64,000 nucleotides of DNA. Source: Candidatus Egerieisoma sp. Lineage in GTDB: Bacteria > Bacteroidota > Bacteroidia > Bacteroidales > UBA932. The translations under genes and the position numbers were made by a program. Position 1 is the stretch's first letter. Each line of letters begins with the position of its first letter. Shown here piece after piece: positions 9,943-49,321 of the stretch. The notes under the pieces were generated by a model that saw nothing but the letters and a program-made list of their open reading frames with translations, did not search any database and was not told the DNA's origin. The stretch is taken from contig JAZNUM010000058.1 in NCBI GenBank assembly GCA_045592325.1, forward strand, positions 834 through 64,833, written 5' to 3'.

Positions 9943-12309
9943 ATGTACAGAAAACTCCTCATCTGGGCACTTGCAGTTACAGTCTCAGTGCCGACATTTG
10001 CAGAAGGTGATGCTCTCAAAGCAGCAGAGAACAAAAAGGACACAATAAACGTACTCTCTGAAGTGGCTGTGGTTGCCAAAATGAAACAAAAGAATGATCT
10101 TAGGGAAGAGCCTCTCTCCTCTTCCACTATAAAACTGGGAGAAATTGAACGGAAACAGATTGTCTCGCTTCACGATGCTTCCATGCAGACACCAAATCTG
10201 CATATTCCAAATTACGGATCAAAGATGACCTCTTCAATTTATATAAGGGGTTTGGGAAGCAGGATTGACCACCCTGCAATAGGAATGTATGTAGACAATA
10301 TCCCATACCTGAACAAAAATGGATTTGACACGGATTTATGGGACATTATGCGCATTGAAGTGCTCCGTGGCCCGCAAAGCACCCTATATGGGCGCAATAC
10401 CATAGGCGGCATTATAAATGTATATACCCTTTCACCAAAGGTGTATCAGGGGGCAAGGGTTTCTGCAGGATACAGCAGCGGTGACACCTACAACATAAAA
10501 GGCTCGGTGTATATGAAGCCATCCGAAAAAGTTGCATTGAGCATAGGGGGAAACTACCTCAACAGAGGGGGATTTTTCACAAATGAATACACCGGCGAAA
10601 AATGTGATGACCAGGAGAGTGCAAGCGGAAGATTCAGATTTATATACACCCCAAACGGCAGGCTTACAATTGACAATTCCTTCTTCTTTGGAAAGGTGGA
10701 CCAGGGCGGATATGCCTACAGGCTCTACAATGCAGGTAACGGGACCATCGGGCCAGTAAACTACAATGACAAGTGCGGCTATGAAAGGACAACCATATCC
10801 AATGGTCTCTCTGTAAACTACAATACCGGAAGACACACTCTCTCCAGCGTAACATCATGGCAATATCTGGATGACTGCATGACTCTTGACCAGGACTTCA
10901 CTCCGGCGAGCATGTTTACCCTCAAACAAGCCCAGCATGAGAATACCGTTACCCAGGATTTCACTATCAAGAGGAATCAGGAAAACCGCAAATGGCAATG
11001 GCTTACAGGTATAACCCTTTTCTACAAGGATATGGATATGGATGCCCCTGTAAGGTTCAAAAAAGATGGTATCAACAACCTCATTTTAGGAGGAATCAAC
11101 GGAATGTTCCAGGGGATGCCGGCACCTATGAATACTGCAAGACTGCAGTTTGTACAGGATGAATTTGACCTTTCAAGCAAGTTTGAGATACCGGTCAAAG
11201 GGGTTGCACTGTACCACCAGTCGCAACTCTCGGCAGGAAAGTTCACCTTTACCGCAGGCCTGAGGCTCGATTATGAAGAGGCCTCTCTCAATTATCTGTG
11301 CAACAGTTCAGTAGATTACATCTACACCATGAAGATTCAGATGAGCCCTATGATGCCTCCAAGGGAGATTAAAGTGGAAAGCGGAGTAAATACTGCAATG
11401 GATGACAATTTGTCTGAAAACTGGTTTGAGGTGCTTCCAAAATTTGGAATCCAATATTCGCTGGGCAAAAAAGGGAATCTATATGCTACCGTAACCCGAG
11501 GATTCAAGGCTGGAGGTTATAACACACAGATATTCTCGGATATCCTGCAGAATGAACTCAAATCGGACCTTATGGCAGACCTTATGGACAAGTCCGGTGG
11601 AGCCTTAGGTTCTATGGGTGGAGGAATGCCGGGTGGAACTGCATCACCAGACTACTCCGTAGATGAGGTTATCACATACAAACCCGAGTATAGTTGGAAC
11701 TATGAAGTGGGAACACATCTATCCCTGATGGACGGGAAATTGAAAGCAGATGCAGCACTCTTCTACATAGACTGCACAGACCAGCAACTGACCGTTTTTC
11801 CAGACGGCAAAACAACAGGACGCATGATGACAAATGCAGGAAAGACAAAGAGCATTGGAGGGGAGATTGCATTGGATGCACAAATTACCCCGGCATTAAG
11901 ACTTGGCATTTCCTACGGCCACACATCAGCCAAATTCGTAAAATATGATGACGGGATAAACAATTACAAGAACAATTACGTACCATATGTGCCCCAGAAC
12001 ACCCTGGCTGCCAACGCATCATACACTTTCTGGAATGCAGGCAAACTGGCAGACAAGATTCAACTCAGATTGGGTTACAACGGAATTGGCAAAATATGGT
12101 GGGACGAGGCAAACCTCAACTCCCAGAAATTCTACTCACTCCTGAACGCATCAGTTTATGCGGAAAAGGGAAAATTCTCATTGGAATTGTGGAGCAAGAA
12201 CCTCAATGACGCCAATTATAACGCATTCTATTTTGTTTCTGTAGGAAATGCATTTTTCTCACAGGGCAATCCGGCAGAATATGGCGTTACAGTATCATTT
12301 CAACTATAA
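9943..12309 (+). CDS. TonB-dependent receptor (siderophore/iron-type)
   Basis: Signal peptide and plug motif IEVLRGPQSTLYGRNTIGGIINVYT. 788-aa barrel ending in an aromatic residue (VTVSFQL). Confidence 0.85.
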   Translation: MYRKLLIWALAVTVSVPTFAEGDALKAAENKKDTINVLSEVAVVAKMKQKNDLREEPLSSSTIKLGEIERKQIVSLHDASMQTPNLHIPNYGSKMTSSIYIRGLGSRIDHPAIGMYVDNIPYLNKNGFDTDLWDIMRIEVLRGPQSTLYGRNTIGGIINVYTLSPKVYQGARVSAGYSSGDTYNIKGSVYMKPSEKVALSIGGNYLNRGGFFTNEYTGEKCDDQESASGRFRFIYTPNGRLTIDNSFFFGKVDQGGYAYRLYNAGNGTIGPVNYNDKCGYERTTISNGLSVNYNTGRHTLSSVTSWQYLDDCMTLDQDFTPASMFTLKQAQHENTVTQDFTIKRNQENRKWQWLTGITLFYKDMDMDAPVRFKKDGINNLILGGINGMFQGMPAPMNTARLQFVQDEFDLSSKFEIPVKGVALYHQSQLSAGKFTFTAGLRLDYEEASLNYLCNSSVDYIYTMKIQMSPMMPPREIKVESGVNTAMDDNLSENWFEVLPKFGIQYSLGKKGNLYATVTRGFKAGGYNTQIFSDILQNELKSDLMADLMDKSGGALGSMGGGMPGGTASPDYSVDEVITYKPEYSWNYEVGTHLSLMDGKLKADAALFYIDCTDQQLTVFPDGKTTGRMMTNAGKTKSIGGEIALDAQITPALRLGISYGHTSAKFVKYDDGINNYKNNYVPYVPQNTLAANASYTFWNAGKLADKIQLRLGYNGIGKIWWDEANLNSQKFYSLLNASVYAEKGKFSLELWSKNLNDANYNAFYFVSVGNAFFSQGNPAEYGVTVSFQL

Positions 12310-43120: not shown

Positions 43121-43143
43121 CGGATTGCCAATTGATCCGCTAC
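43117..43143. terminator. 9-bp perfect hairpin spanning both convergent stop codons
   Basis: GTAGCGGAT-(9 nt)-ATCCGCTAC. Includes the TAG of the + gene and the stop of cobC. Confidence 0.5.
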
Positions 43144-43682
43144 AGGGATAATCTGATTATACTGCCATAATCATCCAATGAGGAAAAGGCATCTTCAGGC
43201 TTGAGGATACCCCCGAAGATTTTGGCACATATAAGTACACCTCCATGACAGAAGCACAGGATATTACTTTTTCCTGACGCCTTCTGCTCCTGCAGGAATG
43301 CAGAAACCCTATTGAACTGATCCTCAAAAGATTCTCCGCCTGTAGCCTTTACATGGAGATAATCCTTATACCACTCTTGCAGCCTCGGATCCTGAATTGA
43401 GTTGTAATCCTGCATCTCCCACTCCCCAAAATCAATCTCCATGATGCGTGGTTCCCTTATGGCCCCTTCAAATCCACAGAACTCCGCCAGTCTGGTACAA
43501 CGGCTCAAAGGACTGGTATAAACAGCATCAAGGAGAGATTTGTCGGGAAGAAGATCATGCAGCCTGTACATAACTTGCTCTGCCTCCTGGGGAAAGGTGA
43601 TTTTCAAAGGGACATCGCTCTGCCCATAGCAGACTCCCTTGGGGACATCTACAGATGTATGCCTTACCAGATAAACATTCAT
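43140..43682 (-). CDS. cobC: alpha-ribazole phosphatase (histidine phosphatase family)
   Basis: MNVYLVRHTS (RH catalytic motif) and a late CHGGV. Positioned after cobS. Confidence 0.75.
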   Translation of the reverse strand: MNVYLVRHTSVDVPKGVCYGQSDVPLKITFPQEAEQVMYRLHDLLPDKSLLDAVYTSPLSRCTRLAEFCGFEGAIREPRIMEIDFGEWEMQDYNSIQDPRLQEWYKDYLHVKATGGESFEDQFNRVSAFLQEQKASGKSNILCFCHGGVLICAKIFGGILKPEDAFSSLDDYGSIIRLSL

Positions 43683-43683
43683 A

Positions 43684-44448
43684 TTACAGCAGTGGATTTA
43701 TGATTGCAAGGGATGTGATCAGGAAGGCAAGTTCACACAGCAGGAATGTGGCACCGCAACAGTCTCCTGTATAGCCCTGTATCCTCTTTTTCAGATACAG
43801 GATAATGAGAAAGAATGTCACACATGGAGCAATGGCTGCATAAGCAGCAACGGCCGGGATGTACAATCCGTAGAAATGCCACAGAAGCCCCGATACAAGA
43901 AGGAGATTAACTGCAAATATCCATACCGGCATCCGGTTGTATACCAATTTGTTCTTGCTTTCCTGCTCGGTGCGGGCATAAGGGAGCAAATTCACTATAT
44001 TGCTTGATATGAACTTGCAGAAGATATCTCCACAAAAGAACAGCGGAACTGAGATTGCAATTGGCATAGACGAAAGTACAGCCACCTGCAATACAAAGTG
44101 GAACAGAATCCCCAGGACGCCATAACTTCCTATATGGGAATCCTTCATAATCCTCAAAACCTGTTCCTTGTCTCTCCCCCCGCCAAAACCGTCAAAAAAA
44201 TCTGCCAAGCCATCCTCATGAAGAGCCCCTGTAACAAGAATCCTGGCCGCCAATCCCAGGATTACAGCCACAATCACAGGGAAGAAAAACGACGCCCCCA
44301 GCATAACCGTCGCACCGGCACCTCCCGTAATTATCCCTGCATACGGCCAATAATTTACAACATTACGGAAATACTCCTTCCCAAGTGTTGCCAACCGCCA
44401 GAAAGGCAATCTGGTAAAAAACATCAATGCAGCAAGAATTCTCTTCAT
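43684..44448 (-). CDS. cobS: adenosylcobinamide-GDP ribazoletransferase (cobalamin synthase)
   Basis: FFTRLPFW...GALHEDGLADFFDG is the CobS signature. Start taken at MKRILAAL, 2 nt after the cobT stop. Confidence 0.85.
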   Translation of the reverse strand: MKRILAALMFFTRLPFWRLATLGKEYFRNVVNYWPYAGIITGGAGATVMLGASFFFPVIVAVILGLAARILVTGALHEDGLADFFDGFGGGRDKEQVLRIMKDSHIGSYGVLGILFHFVLQVAVLSSMPIAISVPLFFCGDIFCKFISSNIVNLLPYARTEQESKNKLVYNRMPVWIFAVNLLLVSGLLWHFYGLYIPAVAAYAAIAPCVTFFLIILYLKKRIQGYTGDCCGATFLLCELAFLITSLAIINPLL

Positions 44449-44452
44449 CACA

Positions 44453-45523
44453 TTAAAAATATTTTGTAACAGAAGCACCGTTAAAACTATCCATCTGATT
44501 TATCATATTTACAGCCGATACAACTATAGGATAGGCACAAATGGCCCCGGTACCCTCTCCAAGCCTCAATCCGAGGTTAAGGACAGGTTTGGCCCCCAAT
44601 ACATCAAGTACACGTCTGTGCCCTATCTCGTCACCACAATGCCCGTAAATTGCATAATCAGTAACGGCAGGATACAGTTCCCTTGCCGCCAGGATACAAT
44701 TTGTCATAATGAAACCGTCTACCAGAATAATCATCTTCAGTTCAGCAGCCCTGAGCATTCCTCCCACAGCCATAACCATCTCATACCCTCCAAACCATCG
44801 CATAATCTCCAAAACATAATCCCTTTTTCTTCCCGACGGGTTCCCATCACCTTTCTTTTCCCTGTAGTTCGCTGCCGCAGCCTCCAGCACATCCAGTTTG
44901 TGCATCAATGCGCCACCTGAAAGACCGCTTCCGGCACCGACACACTCCTTCAATGGGATACCTCCGAGAAAACTCATCCACATGGATGAAGGGGACGTGT
45001 TCCCTGCTCCCATTTCTCCAAAAGAAACAATATTGCACCCCTGGGCATATACCCTGTCAACCTGTTCTGCGCCCCGTTCAATAGCCAGTTCAAGTTCATG
45101 CATTGTCATAGCCGGACCATGAAGGAAATTGCGTGTCCCTTTTCTTATCTTGGCATCAATAATTCCGCATCCCTGAGGAAAATCAAAATCCACGCCGCTG
45201 TCCACCACGTTAAGTTTAAAACCATGCTGGGCACAAAGAAAACTGATACCGGCACCACCCCTGAGAAAATGCCCCATCTGCTGCCAGGTAACCTCTTTAG
45301 GAGTGCAACTCACCCCCTCCTCCAGAATACCATGATCCGCCCCAAAAAGGATATGCTGCGGATTCCTCAATTCAGGTTCCAGACTCTGCAATATCATACC
45401 CACCTGCAAGGCCAGTTCCTCCAGCATCCCCAAAGAACCTTTGGGCTTGGTAAGATTGTCTATCTTGACCTGTAACTTCCCCCTCAAACTTTCGTCGGGA
45501 GAATATATATTGAATGATCTCAT
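44453..45523 (-). CDS. cobT: nicotinate-nucleotide--dimethylbenzimidazole phosphoribosyltransferase
   Basis: [18 protein letters not shown]...[10 protein letters not shown]...LGEGTGA are CobT motifs. Confidence 0.9.
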
Positions 45524-45531
45524 AATATTAA

Positions 45532-46302
45532 CTATTTTATCTTCATAGGAATACCGCTTACCATAAAGACTACCTCATCTGCCTTGGAAGCAATATACTG
45601 GTTCAGCCATCCCAAAAGATCAGTAAACTGCCTCTGCACCTTATTCTCCGGAACGCCGCACAACCCTATCTCATTAGTAACAAAAACAAAAGTTGCATCC
45701 TGCGAAGTAAACCTATCAAACTCTACCTTAATCTGCTGCAATGTCCGTTCAACCAAATTTGCAGATTCGGCTGCCTGACTCGCGGTCATTGTCACCTTCT
45801 CTGTACCATCCGCATCCGGAGCAACCTCCGAGATATCCGGAGCAACCTCCGGGACATCCGGCTCTGTACTCAAGTCAAAAAAGAAATTCGTACTCCACAA
45901 CGTTACACAATCTATAAGCACTACCCTTCCGGCAACATCATATCTGCTGAGATATTTGGGCTCCTCAAGGTTTATCCACTGCGGCCCCCTCCTCTGCTGA
46001 TGCAGTTTCACCCTATGGGCAAACTCCTCATCCCAAATCCTTGAAGTAGCCATATACACAGCCCTGCCGTCTGCATGCATACTGCCACCCGGCACCATGC
46101 CACCAGGCTCACTGCCTCCTTGCACCATGCCACCAGACTCGCTACCTCCTCGCACCATGCCACCAGACTCGCTACCTCCTTGCACCATGCCACTATCAGG
46201 CCCCTCTCCCGCAGACTTTGCCGCCATCTCCAGCACAATTTTCTCGGCGTATGTACTCTTCCCTGAACGCTGTCCACCAGTAACCAGAATAATTCTCTTC
46301 AT
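45532..46302 (-). CDS. cobU: adenosylcobinamide kinase/guanylyltransferase with repeat insertions
   Basis: [17 protein letters not shown]-loop...YMATS...LIDCVTLW...[14 protein letters not shown]...[12 protein letters not shown]. 256 aa versus about 180 aa for typical CobU. Confidence 0.85.
45814..45864. repeat. in-frame 21-bp tandem repeat (about 2.4 copies) inside cobU
   Basis: ATCCGGAGCAACCTCCGAGAT / ATCCGGAGCAACCTCCGGGAC / ATCCGGCTC. Encodes (EVAPDIS)n on the minus strand. Confidence 0.85.
46092..46195. repeat. in-frame 30-bp tandem repeat (about 3.5 copies) inside cobU
   Basis: GCACCATGCCACCAGRCTCRCTRCCTCCTY repeats at 46092, 46122, 46152 and 46182. Encodes GGSESGGMV(Q/R) units. Confidence 0.9.
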
Positions 46303-46320
46303 AGAATCACATTTATCTTA

Positions 46321-46328
46321 CAAAGATA
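46321..46328 (-). promoter_or_regulatory. -7 box TATCTTTG for the cob operon
   Basis: Plus-strand CAAAGATA is a minus-strand TAnnTTTG match, 19 nt upstream of the cobU ATG. Confidence 0.45.
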
Positions 46329-46355
46329 GCAAATTCCAATAAAGAATATCTCTGC

Positions 46356-46519
46356 TGAAATTCATTATCCTTACAACCCTATTCCCCTCCCCCACCAGAA
46401 ACCTCTTCTGAAGGCATTCTAAAAAAATTCCAAGGACAACGGGCCCATATCGGCCCGTTATCCTCAGCCAACCCTCTTCCTTTGCTTCCCGACAGGTTCA
46501 GCAAGGACAACAAAATTCA
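46356..46519 (+). repeat. 164-bp repeat element, copy A
   Basis: Shares TGAAATTCATTATCCTTA at the left end and a roughly 85% identical right half with copy B. Terminal inverted repeats GAAATTCATTATCCTT / AAGGACAACAAAATTC. 13-bp hairpin AGGACAACGGGCC-CATATC-GGCCCGTTATCCT. Confidence 0.8.
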
Positions 46520-46564
46520 GGAATACAAACGGCAGTTGCATAATAAAAATTTTAGTCATAACTT

Positions 46565-46572
46565 TACTTTTG
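46565..46572 (+). promoter_or_regulatory. -7 box TACTTTTG
   Basis: TAnnTTTG match 29 nt upstream of the ATG at 46601. Confidence 0.4.
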
Positions 46573-46600
46573 AGCGGCCACTAGAGGCGCAAGGTAGAAG

Positions 46601-47575
46601 ATGAAGAAAACAGATGAGTTGCTCAGAAATATTGGGCACGACTTAGGGCTTAATGAACCAACCTATAAAGGGAGAAATCTCCCAGTCAGAAATTGCTGGC
46701 ACTTTTACACCAATGGCAACAATATTGACCACATGTTCTGCGACGAACAGGACTTCAAAGATGGGATGAACCGCATATTTGTAACAATCAACAAGTTCAA
46801 AGCAATCATTCTGGCATTTACTCTCATGGATACCCACATACACTTTATCCTATATGGCCAGTTTGACGAATGCAACAGATTCATTCACCACTTCATAAAC
46901 ATAACATCAAGGGCTATAAGCGAAAGATTCAATGAATCACACAAACTGGCAAATGTACAGATAAGCCACCAGACAATAAACAACGAACAATATCTGAAAA
47001 CAGCCATCTGTTATGTATTGAGAAATGCACCTGTAGGAGGAATCCCCTACAATGCATTGGACTATCCGTGGTCAAGCGCACCACTTTATTTCAAAGGCCC
47101 AACCAAATGCAACTGGACATCACCACTTTGGCAAGCCCCTTCAAATTTCATGGAATTGCAGAATCTCACATTCACAGAGAAAAGGAAATTCCTCAAAACC
47201 AGAAACCCCGGAACACTCCAAAATGCAAAAATCTTCCATGGAATAGTTTTCCCAGGAGAATACGTTGCATACGAAGTAGTTGAAAGGATATTCAAAACCC
47301 ACAAAAGTTTCAATTACTTCCTCAACACCTGCAAAGAATCATACATAGAATCCCGACAAGGCAACATAGCAAATCTATCCATCCCCATGCAGGAACTGCG
47401 CATGCTCCGCAATGCAGCCTGTAAAGAGTTGCTCGGAGAAGAATTCTCCAGAAACCTCTCCACTCTCCAACGGCTCAAACTCGCCCGCACCCTCAAAAGA
47501 AAATACCTGTGCTCAACAAAACAGATAGCACGAATATGTGGCCTGCTATACGATGAAGCCAAACATTTGCTTTAA
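46601..47575 (+). CDS. HUH/Y1 transposase-like protein (IS200/RAYT family) with C-terminal DnaA-domain-IV-like HTH
   Basis: LMDTHIHFILYG is an HUH motif. ICYVLRNAPVGGIPYNALDYPWSS resembles the RAYT Y..NPV...DYPWSS block. The C-terminus LKLARTLKRKYLCSTKQIARICGL resembles the DnaA domain IV HTH. Confidence 0.7.
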   Translation: MKKTDELLRNIGHDLGLNEPTYKGRNLPVRNCWHFYTNGNNIDHMFCDEQDFKDGMNRIFVTINKFKAIILAFTLMDTHIHFILYGQFDECNRFIHHFINITSRAISERFNESHKLANVQISHQTINNEQYLKTAICYVLRNAPVGGIPYNALDYPWSSAPLYFKGPTKCNWTSPLWQAPSNFMELQNLTFTEKRKFLKTRNPGTLQNAKIFHGIVFPGEYVAYEVVERIFKTHKSFNYFLNTCKESYIESRQGNIANLSIPMQELRMLRNAACKELLGEEFSRNLSTLQRLKLARTLKRKYLCSTKQIARICGLLYDEAKHLL

Positions 47576-47645
47576 ATATAGGAAAATCATGCCCACCATC
47601 TGTGTAGACATACAGGATATGTTGTCTCAAGCCACTGGCCCTGAC

Positions 47646-47749
47646 GCAGCACACTGGTGCGGGATGCTGGTGCAGCACACTGGTGCGGGATGATGGTACA
47701 GCACACTGGTGCGGGATGCTCGTGCGGCACACTGGTGCGGGATGCTGTC
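47646..47749. repeat. 26-bp tandem repeat x4
   Basis: GCAGCACACTGGTGCGGGATGCTGGT units at 47646, 47672, 47698 and 47724. Each contains a small GCAC-ACTG-GTGC hairpin. Confidence 0.9.
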
Positions 47750-47813
47750 GGGAGATGGTGCCACAAAGTGAAAATGAATTATCAGCAGCAAAACGGCCAG
47801 ACAGATACTATAA

Positions 47814-47976
47814 TGAAATTCATTATCCTTATGAGTTAATGGCAACCTCGGCTACAACCATCTACAGAGGACTTTTTAAAAAAACTCCGAGGACAACGGC
47901 CCCAAATTGCCCCGTTATCCTCAGTACCCCTCCTTCCATTGCTTCCCGACAGATTATGTAAGGATAACGAAATTCA
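47814..47976 (+). repeat. 164-bp repeat element, copy B
   Basis: Same ends, same central hairpin region (GAGGACAACGGCCCC...GCCCCGTTATCCTC) and the same CTTCC.TTGCTTCCCGACAG block as copy A. The left-central ~47 nt have diverged. Confidence 0.8.
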
Positions 47977-48025
47977 CTTTCTACCAATAATTTGAATTAG
48001 CGGTACAACCTCTAATATTTTTTAT

Positions 48026-48033
48026 TAGATTTG
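48026..48033 (+). promoter_or_regulatory. -7 box TAGATTTG upstream of the asnA leader
   Basis: TAnnTTTG match 9 nt before the leader ATG. Confidence 0.4.
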
Positions 48034-48041
48034 CACCAGTT

Positions 48042-48125
48042 ATGAGACTCTACAATAATAATATCATTATAAACAATTGCATCAATAACCTTTTTGTTGC
48101 AGTGGGGAGTCTTATTGTTTTATAG
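48042..48125 (+). CDS. candidate Asn-rich leader peptide (27 aa)
   Basis: ATG AGA CTC TAC AAT AAT AAT ATC ATT ATA AAC AAT TGC ATC AAT AAC ... TAG translates to MRLYNNNIIINNCINNLFVAVGSLIVL. 7 of 27 codons are Asn. Located upstream of asnA. Confidence 0.5.
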   Translation: MRLYNNNIIINNCINNLFVAVGSLIVL

Positions 48126-48148
48126 GTAAATGTTTTAATGTAAATGAT

Positions 48149-48176
48149 AAGGCTCTCGGCAATGAGGGCCTTTTTT
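48149..48176 (+). terminator. intrinsic terminator (attenuator) between the leader ORF and asnA
   Basis: AAGGCTCTC-GGCAAT-GAGGGCCTT (9 bp with one G-U pair) followed by TTTTTT. Confidence 0.7.
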
Positions 48177-48280
48177 AATGGTGTACCAACCGTACCGGCA
48201 AAACCGGCAAAACCGGCAGCAACAACGGCAACCGGTAGTGACTGGCAGCAATACGGAGCATCTTTTTGGAGATTGGGATT

Positions 48281-49321
48281 ATGGGAAAATTGTTTATTCC
48301 GCAGGGATATGTTTCAAAACTGGATGTATGGCAGACAGAGAGGGCCATCAAGTTTATAAAGGATACTTTTCAGCAACACCTTTCGGCACAACTGAAGCTC
48401 AGGAGGGTAACTGCTCCGCTGGTGGTGGAGGCAAACAAGGGGTTGAATGACAATTTGTCGGGAGTGGAGGCCCCGGTAACTTTCGCCGTAAATGATCTTG
48501 GAGAGGGAAAGAAGGTCGAGATTGTGCAGTCACTTGCAAAATGGAAGAGATATACCCTCTGGAGACATCATATTGAAGCAGGGAAAGGTATTTATACAGA
48601 TATGAATGCTCTCCGCCCGTGCGAGGAACTGGACAATATCCACTCCATTTATGTTGACCAGTGGGATTGGGAGAAGGTGATGCTGGAGAGTGAACGTACC
48701 ACAGAATACCTGCACCAGACAGTAGAGTGCATCTACAAGGCTCTCAAACATACAGAGTACCTTTTATGTGAACAATATCCTGTCTTCTCCCCTTTCCTTC
48801 CCGACAAAGTGCATTTTATGCATGCAGAGGAACTCCGCAGGGAATACCCAGGCCTCGCCCCCAAAGGGAGAGAATATGAAATATGCAAAAAATATGGGGC
48901 AGTGTTCATTCAGGGTATAGGATGTGCATTGGGTGACGGCACCCTGCACGACACCCGCTCCTCTGATTATGATGACTGGAGTTCCCCTACCCCCGACGGG
49001 TTCTGCGGTCTGAACGGTGATATCCTAATCTACAATCCTGTATTGGATTCCGCATTTGAAATCTCCTCAATGGGCATAAGGGTAAATCCACATGCCCTTG
49101 AAAAGCAATTGGAGATCAGCGGCAACACAGAACGCAAGAAACTCATGTTCCACTCGTTGCTACTGGAAGGAAAACTTCCGCAGACAATTGGTGGCGGTAT
49201 TGGCCAAAGCCGCCTATGTATGCTCCTTATGGGGAAATGCCATATTGGAGAAGTTCAGAGCGGAGTATGGGATGATGCAACCAGGGCTGCCTGTGCAGAT
49301 GCCGGGGTATATCTGTTGTAA
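48281..49321 (+). CDS. asnA: aspartate--ammonia ligase (asparagine synthetase A)
   Basis: ERAIKFIKDTFQQHLSAQLKLRRVTAPL...DWEKV...GGGIGQSRLCMLLL-like class II aaRS-related AsnA blocks. Start taken at MGKLFIPQ. Confidence 0.9.
   Translation: MGKLFIPQGYVSKLDVWQTERAIKFIKDTFQQHLSAQLKLRRVTAPLVVEANKGLNDNLSGVEAPVTFAVNDLGEGKKVEIVQSLAKWKRYTLWRHHIEAGKGIYTDMNALRPCEELDNIHSIYVDQWDWEKVMLESERTTEYLHQTVECIYKALKHTEYLLCEQYPVFSPFLPDKVHFMHAEELRREYPGLAPKGREYEICKKYGAVFIQGIGCALGDGTLHDTRSSDYDDWSSPTPDGFCGLNGDILIYNPVLDSAFEISSMGIRVNPHALEKQLEISGNTERKKLMFHSLLLEGKLPQTIGGGIGQSRLCMLLMGKCHIGEVQSGVWDDATRAACADAGVYLL

Follow-up and report, generated by a model that had tools for sequence, protein, structure and literature searches.

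A divergent RAYT-like Y1 HUH gene of Bacteroidales bracketed by paired structured modules: a probable REPtron/TIRtron-type locus

Genes for RAYT proteins (REP-associated tyrosine transposases, where REP stands for repetitive extragenic palindrome) and for related Y1 enzymes of the HUH superfamily have been described together with structured DNA at their flanks. In this work we analyse such a gene in a stretch of 64,000 nucleotides (nt) from Candidatus Egerieisoma sp. of the Bacteroidales (contig JAZNUM010000058.1, positions 834 to 64,833; the whole stretch is called the window), where a RAYT-like protein of 324 amino acids (aa) is encoded between two modules of about 164 bp. In the classification of TnpA-Y1 proteins by Quentin et al. 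2018, which was made from complete genomes via PF01797 at E < 0.01, a REPtron has as its signature the cognate palindromic doublets that flank the gene; subclass 2.1 has HTH/DnaA_C tails (HTH, helix-turn-helix) and no REPs and contains TIRYTs, most of which fall in this subclass; and subclass 2.6, from Bacteroidetes, consists of proteins of ~179 aa with 'atypical secondary structures' (PMC6006769). TIRtrons are RAYT-like genes with long flanking inverted repeats, some of them double-palindromic, and are mostly undispersed (Di Nocera et al. 2013, PMC3733652). The role of RAYT-like proteins in the host is a standing question, and the known systems are hard to dissect, with hundreds of dispersed substrates for each enzyme.

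Based on the analysis presented here, we consider it probable that the locus is of the REPtron/TIRtron type, that is, a domesticated Y1 enzyme with private cognate hairpin substrates, and that it belongs to a divergent and large clade of Bacteroidales. An initial annotation of the window, in which the locus was read as a RAYT/IS200-like Y1 enzyme with flanking hairpins, is supported in its essentials. The motifs of the family (THxH; YxxxN[AP]P; a C-terminal domain of ~140 aa; a module phased at 72 nt) appear to fit no published subclass, published RAYT classifications seem to miss this clade, and the family probably escaped the retrieval step of Quentin et al. 2018. In the literature on RAYT in Prevotella or Bacteroidales we found nothing specific and no description of the family. 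As the enzyme appears to keep two substrates only, with an architecture that is precisely conserved and a sequence that is free, the dozens of matched enzyme/substrate pairs form a natural set for the study of specificity, cleavage sites and function.

The closest described systems compare with the family as follows. TIRtrons and TIRYTs have, like the family, a Y1 gene that is longer than that of RAYTs and carries a C-terminal extension, long inverted flank repeats that are not GTAG REPs, and a low copy number; here too, long non-GTAG inverted repeats bracket the gene, with the family outer ends CAACCCGAAATTC...GAATTTCGGGTTG. By contrast, subclass 2.1 has NH[VYF]H and YI[EH]LNP where the family has T-H-x-H and Y-x-x-x-N-[AP]-P, and the domains found at the C-termini of subclass 2.1 (Bac_DnaA_C, HTH_23 and HTH_28) have no match in 23 family members. 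Moreover, the TIRtron flank is a single inverted repeat, whereas that of the family is a complete 150-165-bp phased module of four motifs, with conserved CAACCCGAAATTC ends and a conserved loop; the GGGGWSAS motif is absent from the family; and the host belongs to Bacteroidales, with the family lying below the Pfam threshold used by Quentin et al. 2018. The enterobacterial and Pseudomonas RAYT/REPIN systems (E. coli TnpA-REP; Bertels & Rainey 2011; Ton-Hoang et al. 2012) resemble the family, whose gene seems to be single-copy and vertically inherited and is under purifying selection; they share with it cognate palindromic doublets that co-evolve with the protein, and they provide the best structural match. 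However, they have tens to hundreds of dispersed copies and GTAG, neither of which the family shows in the loci scanned, and the REP is 20-40 bp long, whereas the modules of the family are several times longer, being a tandem inverted-repeat pair, and its protein is about twice as long. The departures from the proteobacterial REP/REPIN paradigm on which the initial annotation had remarked are real, with corrections as to orientation and the HTH domain that are given below.

Subclass 2.6, or the Bertels group 5 RAYT-like proteins, shares with the family the occurrence in Bacteroidetes, the SS motif after the catalytic Tyr and flanking structures that were found by manual inspection. Its proteins of ~179 aa have NH[LIV]H and YIH[QN]NP, with copies of the structures reported elsewhere in the genome, whereas the family has ~320 aa, an extra C-terminal domain of ~140 aa and private modules. 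Elements of IS200/IS605 (IS608, ISDra2) have the Y1 HUH fold in common with the family, as well as imperfect hairpins in subterminal position to either side of the gene and the lack of a target duplication, but they are multi-copy and mobile, with a TnpA of ~130-150 aa, no terminal inverted repeats and a fixed strand polarity. The gene of the family, by contrast, keeps its synteny and seems to be present as a single copy, and its modules carry terminal inverted repeats and can stand either way round.

The features of the gene and the two modules in the window are the following.

46601-47575, + strand: gene for the RAYT-like Y1 HUH protein, an open reading frame of 324 aa between cobU and asnA
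Residues ~30-160 of the protein: Y1 core, with H79, H81, Y138 and N142
Residues ~185-324 of the protein: conserved C-terminal domain with a helical end, no assigned fold
46356-46519: module A, 164 bp, upstream of the gene; found by alignment, repeat search and profile (E = 1.9e-53), and present also at L001 and L017
46356-46373, + strand: left end of module A, where TGAAATTC precedes ATTATCCTTA; the 18-mer is identical in both modules
46432-46464: imperfect palindrome at the centre of module A, which reads AAGGACAACGGGCC / CATATC / GGCCCGTTATCCT and holds a single C/A mismatch
46503-46519, + strand: right end of module A, where AAGGACAAC precedes AAAATTCA; complementary to the left terminus at 14/20 positions
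47814-47976: module B, 163 bp, downstream of the gene and oriented as A; profile E = 5.6e-49
47890-47921: central palindrome of module B, AGGACAACGG ... CCGTTATCCT, upper stem degraded in this genome

The open reading frame contains MDTHIHF and YVLRNAPVGG...DYPWSS, and in the test for the superfamily T-H79-I-H81 corresponds to HUH and Y138-V-L-R-N142 to the Tyr with a Q/N four residues on. In an alignment of 23 homologues at ~50% identity, MDTH79xH81F and Y138xxxN142 are invariant, as are Y155-P156-W157 and S159 of the DYPWSS block, D154 being kept in at least 90%. The initial annotation had seen a HUH motif and the DYPWSS block in the gene and had made its reading depend on a catalytic Tyr in proper alignment; the reading frame, the invariant residues and the RAYT-like fold agree with it, and the Tyr is Y138 of YxxxN. 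Since the HUH histidines, Tyr138 and Asn142 are invariant in the family, it can be argued that catalysis has been retained. In an AlphaFold model of the full protein (mean predicted local distance difference test score, pLDDT, of 76), the top PDB match by Foldseek is 4ER8, the E. coli RAYT in complex with a REP hairpin (prob 1.00; template modelling score, TM, of 0.55 over the target), followed by IS608, ISDra2, IS200 and Sulfolobus Y1 transposases (2A6M, 2VHG, 2FYX, 2VJV, 2EC2, 2F4F and 2XQC among the top matches), and over the top matches prob is 0.94-1.00 and TM 0.40-0.55 over the target. According to this model, the product is predicted to have the Y1 HUH transposase fold. A sequence search of the protein and the family profile against solved structures gave nothing meaningful, and an exact look-up of the protein among the assemblies returned no entry.

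The fused HTH domain claimed earlier is not confirmed. Helices are predicted confidently for the last ~65 residues, and there is no significant match to a family or structure: the conserved C-terminal ~140 residues match no Pfam family in any of the 23 members, and when the domain is modelled alone (pLDDT 69) every PDB match has E > 1. A C-terminal helix-turn-helix is at most suggested by the sequence pattern. The candidate of a C-terminus equivalent to domain IV of E. coli DnaA was rejected (hhalign E = 0.25, not significant).

As to the modules of the window, the edges of the alignment between A and B are sharp: identity is 18/18 for the left end, falls to 51% in the 47 nt that come next and is 80% across the right 100 nt, compared with 24-38% just outside the elements, and blastn of the upstream against the downstream flank gives E = 7e-29. 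The terminal inverted repeats are 14/20 complementary in A and 16/20 in B, and the left end of A and the right end of B form a 20-nt inverted repeat that is 90% complementary. The 18-mer occurs in the window only at the two left ends and, in degenerate form, at the inverted right end of B, with 0.13 occurrences expected; its part TGAAATTC carries the family-wide GAAATTC, and its part ATTATCCTTA is the lineage-specific motif. Most of what the initial annotation had described is therefore recovered, namely two elements in the same orientation, the identical 18-nt left end, an effectively unrelated left-central part of ~47 nt, imperfect terminal inverted repeats and no visible target duplication around the modules. 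The right halves are similar as claimed, although at 80% over the right 100 nt rather than at ~85%, and the long hairpin with a C-A mismatch that had been assigned to each copy is found intact in A, which folds significantly as single-stranded DNA (z = -3.4), and with a damaged upper stem in B; in copy B of L017 the hairpin is intact. Module A contains four copies of AAGGAYAAC/GTTRTCCTT in the order < > < >, and a description of each element as two tandem inverted-repeat units of ~72 nt, that is, as four copies of one motif, fits better than one as a hairpin with terminal inverted repeats. On the - strand, T runs come after the central hairpins (regions 46430-46467 and 47886-47913) and give them the look of an intrinsic terminator, with a terminator-like hit at 46467-46430; the A/T run is lineage-specific and is not seen in GC-rich homologues.

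The loci compared with the window (numbered L) comprise the same locus in two close relatives, L001, whose protein is 92% identical, and L017, which is from the GTDB representative metagenome-assembled genome (MAG) 'Bacteroidales bacterium SIG149' for the species of the window, as well as two loci at 54-57% identity and 80 metagenome loci. Among the 71 homologous loci with at least 250 bp on either side of the gene, 55 have a significant repeat between the upstream and the downstream flank, and most of the unpaired loci retain one module of the same geometry. The flank repeats are typically 150-165 bp long, ending 60-120 bp before the ATG and starting 2-120 bp after the stop. The sequences of the modules are unrelated between lineages, and 54 of 82 distinct copies have a lineage-specific ~9-mer four times in alternating orientation, at offsets of ~0/47/72/119; in the control for the geometry score, which covered 60 windows, none was above 21. 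When the copies are stacked, the outer ends CAACCCGAAATTC and GAATTTCGGGTTG and the central loop CGATTTNGG are seen to be conserved family-wide, with the layout (CAACCC)GAAATTC-[m']-~38 nt-[m]-CGATTTNGG loop-[m']-~38 nt-[m]-GAATTTC(GGGTTG), where m is the ~9-nt lineage-variable motif (AAGGAYAAC in the window, GGAAGGTG and GCGCTGCGA in other lineages) and the two spacers of ~38 nt vary freely. In the window modules, the GAAATTC beside the motif is kept, the CAACCC is lost and the first unit is ~20 nt longer, and their loop, CCGATATGG on the - strand, agrees with the CGATTTNGG consensus of the family. Three copies at L123 fix the ends of the module at CAACCCG...CGGGTTG, without target duplication. 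A GT[AG]G (or CGTC) foot by the stems is absent; the stems adjoin GAAATTC/GAATTTC and the loop CGATTTNGG.

In 20 central palindromes from different lineages, 81% of the cells are paired, compared with 61% after shuffling and 29-45% with the partners slid; none of 500 shuffles reached the observed pairing, and both-sided changes occur at 12 of the 14 pairs. The mid-stem columns are often mismatched, at the position of the C/A mismatch of the window. These alignments show a constraint of dyad symmetry on the central palindrome, with strong compensatory change. Based on the loop as an orientation marker, 17 upstream modules are forward and 6 reverse relative to the gene; the modules are near-palindromic and stand in either orientation, and the direct orientation noted earlier holds at the window locus and not as a family rule. 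Since the near-palindromic nature of the modules had misled blastn into some of its 'inverted' labels, as at L058 and L064, which prove to be colinear, orientation was judged by the loop marker together with full alignments.

Next we consider the copy number. With a profile made from five module copies, no third one is detected in the 64-kb window, and there is one close copy of the gene per locus, with no second in the window. The exact 18-mer has only chance single hits in a genome collection of 596 Gb, apart from a pair of hits where L017 has its orthologue of the locus, and the conserved family end CAACCCGAAATTC has 5 hits in the window at up to 2 mismatches (2.1 expected), none of them beside a module. 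The exact 164-bp sequence occurs at this locus only, whereas equivalent modules flank the homologues in most of the related loci, so that the dispersal which the initial annotation had proposed to check is not seen for the element itself and the association with homologous genes is present. Extra module copies occur in 4 of 48 loci (572 kb of metagenomic sequence), namely L052/L053, L059 and L123, three of them within ~1.3 kb of the gene: at L052/L053 the third copy is adjacent, the downstream module being duplicated at L052; at L059 the extra copy is 1.1 kb upstream; and at L123 an inverted third copy, 96-98% identical, lies 7.6 kb from the gene. Modules can be copied, yet there is no sign of a REPIN-like population in the loci scanned.

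The gene occurs in genomic contexts that recur, as seen by clustering of neighbour genes. For pairs of loci with common neighbours, the identity of the gene follows that of the neighbours across 57-100%, the gene being somewhat faster (for example 86% versus 80-96%, 75% versus 79-98% and, for the window versus L002, 57% versus 64-77%), and tblastn against plasmid and phage collections gave no match to the protein. Because the gene co-diverges with its neighbours, synteny is shared and plasmid or phage matches are missing, the data fit vertical descent, and we regard it as probably a vertically inherited chromosomal gene and not a jumping insertion sequence. With respect to the two close relatives, its ratio of nonsynonymous to synonymous substitution rates (dN/dS) is 0.12-0.16; the gene is under purifying selection. 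It is also observed that the divergence from L017 is mosaic, with 3 nucleotide differences in the first ~300 nt of the gene and 3 mismatches in the 164 nt of module A, while the bulk of the 57 nucleotide differences falls at gene positions 400-800, which suggests that recombination may have occurred inside the locus.

Rearrangements have ends at the modules. In L085 relative to L070, the gene cassette is inverted with respect to the same flanking genes and the ends of the inversion lie at the modules; in L074, the downstream module alone is flipped, as seen from alignment and the loop-orientation marker; and L109 and L116, whose proteins are 97.8% identical, diverge completely just past the 3' end of the gene (position 10962 onward). 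As strain-level breakpoints and an inversion fall at modules, these loci mark breaks of synteny in Bacteroidales, and as hot spots of rearrangement the modules affect genome comparison and assembly in this order.

With the locus taken as one of the REPtron/TIRtron type, its product would be a single-strand-DNA endonuclease/ligase, for which the following pathway can be proposed. Once replication or the extrusion of a cruciform has made the DNA single-stranded, imperfect hairpins would form from the central palindrome and from the terminal repeats, and a dimer of the protein would read the variable stems. Cutting would then occur beside the stems via Tyr138, with the metal held by His79, His81 and Asn142, and the ends could be rejoined. 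From time to time a module, or the gene cassette, would in this way be excised, copied or flipped. This pathway, with its putative single-stranded hairpin substrate, is modelled on the predicted fold, on catalytic residues that do not vary and on how the family behaves.

The case for this reading is made directly by the fold, the catalytic residues, the family-wide association of gene and module, the fixed geometry with variable sequence, the compensatory change, the signs of vertical inheritance, the purifying selection and the ends of rearrangements at modules; the binding, the cleavage sites, the single-stranded substrate and any benefit to the cell are inferred. Several points weigh on the other side. 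The match to Pfam Y1_Tnp (PF01797) has E = 0.008 and 16.8 bits against a cut-off of 23, such a weak match being seen in 15 of the 23 family members with a best E of 6.4e-5; NCBIfam REP_Tyr_transpos scores 25 bits against a cut-off of 80, its alignment spanning profile positions 9-146 of 146 despite the low score; and the E-values of Foldseek are only 2e-3 to 4e-2. Module B has damage at the top of its hairpin (GGCCCC/GCCCC), and with z = -1.8 the fold falls short of significance. A double-stranded operator bound by a symmetric protein would be expected to show compensatory change just as well, and the inversions could stem from ordinary homologous recombination between repeats and not from the enzyme. 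In addition, the copy number is based on an 18-mer scan of one MAG, on the window and on the 572 kb of metagenomic flanks, not on closed genomes, and metagenome assembly can under-represent repeats.

Three other explanations can be envisaged, all of which we regard as less likely than a REPtron/TIRtron-type locus. It could be supposed that the modules are the ends of an autonomous insertion sequence of the IS200/IS605 type, with the 1.6-kb unit 46356-47976 transposing. This would be in line with a Y1 gene lying between similar structured ends without target duplication, with the 20-nt, 90% complementary pair of the left end of A and the right end of B, with the different genomic contexts of the gene in distant lineages and with the coincidence of rearrangement breakpoints with the unit. 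If this were the case, however, one would not expect gene and neighbours to run parallel in identity over the range of 57% to 100%, with synteny shared, nor would one expect that no second close copy is present in any locus or in the 64-kb window, that plasmid and phage matches are lacking and that dN/dS is 0.12-0.16. Moreover, the free orientation of the modules should not be tolerated by the strand-specific IS200/IS605, solo modules can duplicate without the gene, and TnpA(IS200) is only half as large as the protein, so that the proposal is unlikely. An alternative with about the same small chance is that the modules are double-stranded operators for the C-terminal domain, insulators or terminators, the protein being mainly a regulator of its own locus and not a nuclease. 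Four motif copies phased at 72 nt do resemble a multi-site operator, the upstream module lies in promoter territory 60-120 bp before the start codon, the central hairpin with the T run on the - strand is terminator-like in this genome, and a symmetric double-stranded site would covary just as a hairpin does. Yet the HUH histidines, Tyr138 and Asn142 are invariant family-wide, a downstream module is unnecessary for autoregulation, and the modules flip, duplicate and mark the ends of inversions; in addition, the T run is lineage-specific and the C-terminus has no assignable DNA-binding fold.

The most improbable of the explanations, in our estimate, is a classical RAYT with a dispersed REPIN population unseen in these data. 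That the nearest structure is the E. coli RAYT, that flanking cognate palindromic doublets are the REPtron signature (PMC6006769) and that extra copies occur occasionally, with repeats liable to drop from metagenome assemblies, would be consistent with it. It would then be hard to understand why 62 kb of the genome yield no further copy in a profile search, why in the species' representative MAG the exact 18-mer is confined to the two sites that flank the gene, why an extra copy is seen in just 4 of 48 loci (572 kb), three within ~1.3 kb of the gene, and why no GT[AG]G foot stands beside the stems.

Within the REPtron/TIRtron-type reading, a more specific and rather doubtful form can be put forward tentatively, that of a 'closed' REPtron, in which a domesticated Y1 HUH enzyme would act on nothing but the two modules, phased and with four sites each, between which its gene lies. 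If this is true, the strict 72-nt phasing, the conserved ends and loop and the inversions and breakpoints at modules would reflect a defined nucleoprotein complex, and programmed flipping, excision or repair-linked processing of the cassette would be expected. The system would then be a site-specific single-strand DNA switch or a device of chromosome maintenance, not a decaying transposon, and because it would have two substrates only, it would offer a minimal and tractable model in which to ask how RAYT-type proteins serve their hosts.

The family is large. An exhaustive search gives homologues in 5,652 clusters (50% identity) at E <= 1e-3, in 930 at 1e-10 and in 168 at 1e-30, the word-indexed search giving 758 hits, and dominant rumen and gut lineages are included. 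Distant paralogues of ~290-305 aa, at ~25% identity, match the profile over ~30-320 and have weak full-length hits to REP_Tyr_transpos (19-33 bits). Three of them have the following flanks.

L127, 1382-2263: paralogue with flank repeats of 139 nt, 98% identical, containing four copies of CACCTGGC
L126, 2661-3542: paralogue with a 34-nt palindrome, of which one copy lies upstream and four lie in tandem downstream
L004, 2302-3219: paralogue with one inverted pair upstream

As one distant paralogue sits 7 kb from a main homologue on the same contig, a single genome can host several such systems.

A separate observation concerns the 8-mer TCCCGACA(A), which is by far the commonest 8-mer of the window, with 30 copies on both strands where ~2 are expected, at a density of roughly one per 2 kb and with unconserved flanks. 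Within genes it is found in either orientation and in several reading frames, and 7 of the 30 copies make up its intergenic enrichment. Examples on the - strand are at 46487-46494, 47944-47951, 47351-47358 and 47746-47753, with one per module. The sequence TTGCTTCCCGACAG, with 12 hits against 0.35 expected, was considered as a dispersed part of the module and rejected, being the independent 8-mer TCCCGACA with unconserved flanks. The 8-mer has 7 copies in 8 kb of L017, of the same species, and is rare in the GC-rich homologue loci. Its distribution resembles that of a genomic word of the DNA-uptake type or of a protein-binding type, and in the literature we found nothing specific on it.

The surroundings of the gene and modules contain the following features.

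45532-46302, - strand: cobU, the neighbour on the 5' side of the RAYT-like gene
47646-47747: tandem array of a 26-bp unit in 3.9 copies (13-bp sub-period), from Tandem Repeats Finder; a minisatellite between the stop codon and module B
48266-49321, + strand: asnA, the neighbour on the 3' side of the RAYT-like gene

The 26-bp array is expanded to 7.4 copies in the sister genome L017 (2989-3179 in the flipped locus coordinates), an array is present at L002 (3044-3123), and periods of 12-14 bp occur beside the modules in several other lineages. Short-period arrays adjoin modules in no more than 17 of 45 loci and so do not belong to what defines the system, and the array at 47646-47747 is probably accessory, lying outside the core. 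On the asnA side, too, the spacer beside module B is hypervariable: upstream of asnA the window has an array of ACCGGCAAA in 2.8 copies (48194-48218), and the corresponding region downstream of module B in L017 (3625-3735, flipped coordinates) has a 13-bp array of ~9 copies.

In the 64-kb window, Rfam at gathering score finds three tRNAs and nothing else, so that no cobalamin riboswitch for the cob genes is detected at this score; in a permissive Rfam scan of 46200-48300, rli43 (26.8 bits, gathering 100) and Phe_leader (23.5 bits, gathering 55) were dismissed as noise. The run of cob genes (cobU, cobT, cobS and a phosphatase) occupies 43140-46302 on the - strand. In cobU, an in-frame 30-bp tandem repeat in 3.4 copies (46092-46193, - strand) encodes GGSESGGMV-like peptides, and since the CobU-like protein has 256 aa in the window and 239-240 aa in L001 and L017, the number of repeats differs between strains. 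Finally, we note that the gap between the start codon of cobU and module A is only 53 nt, and that a candidate -7 box of the Bacteroidetes type, TATCTTTG, was spotted in it by eye on the - strand at 46322-46329.

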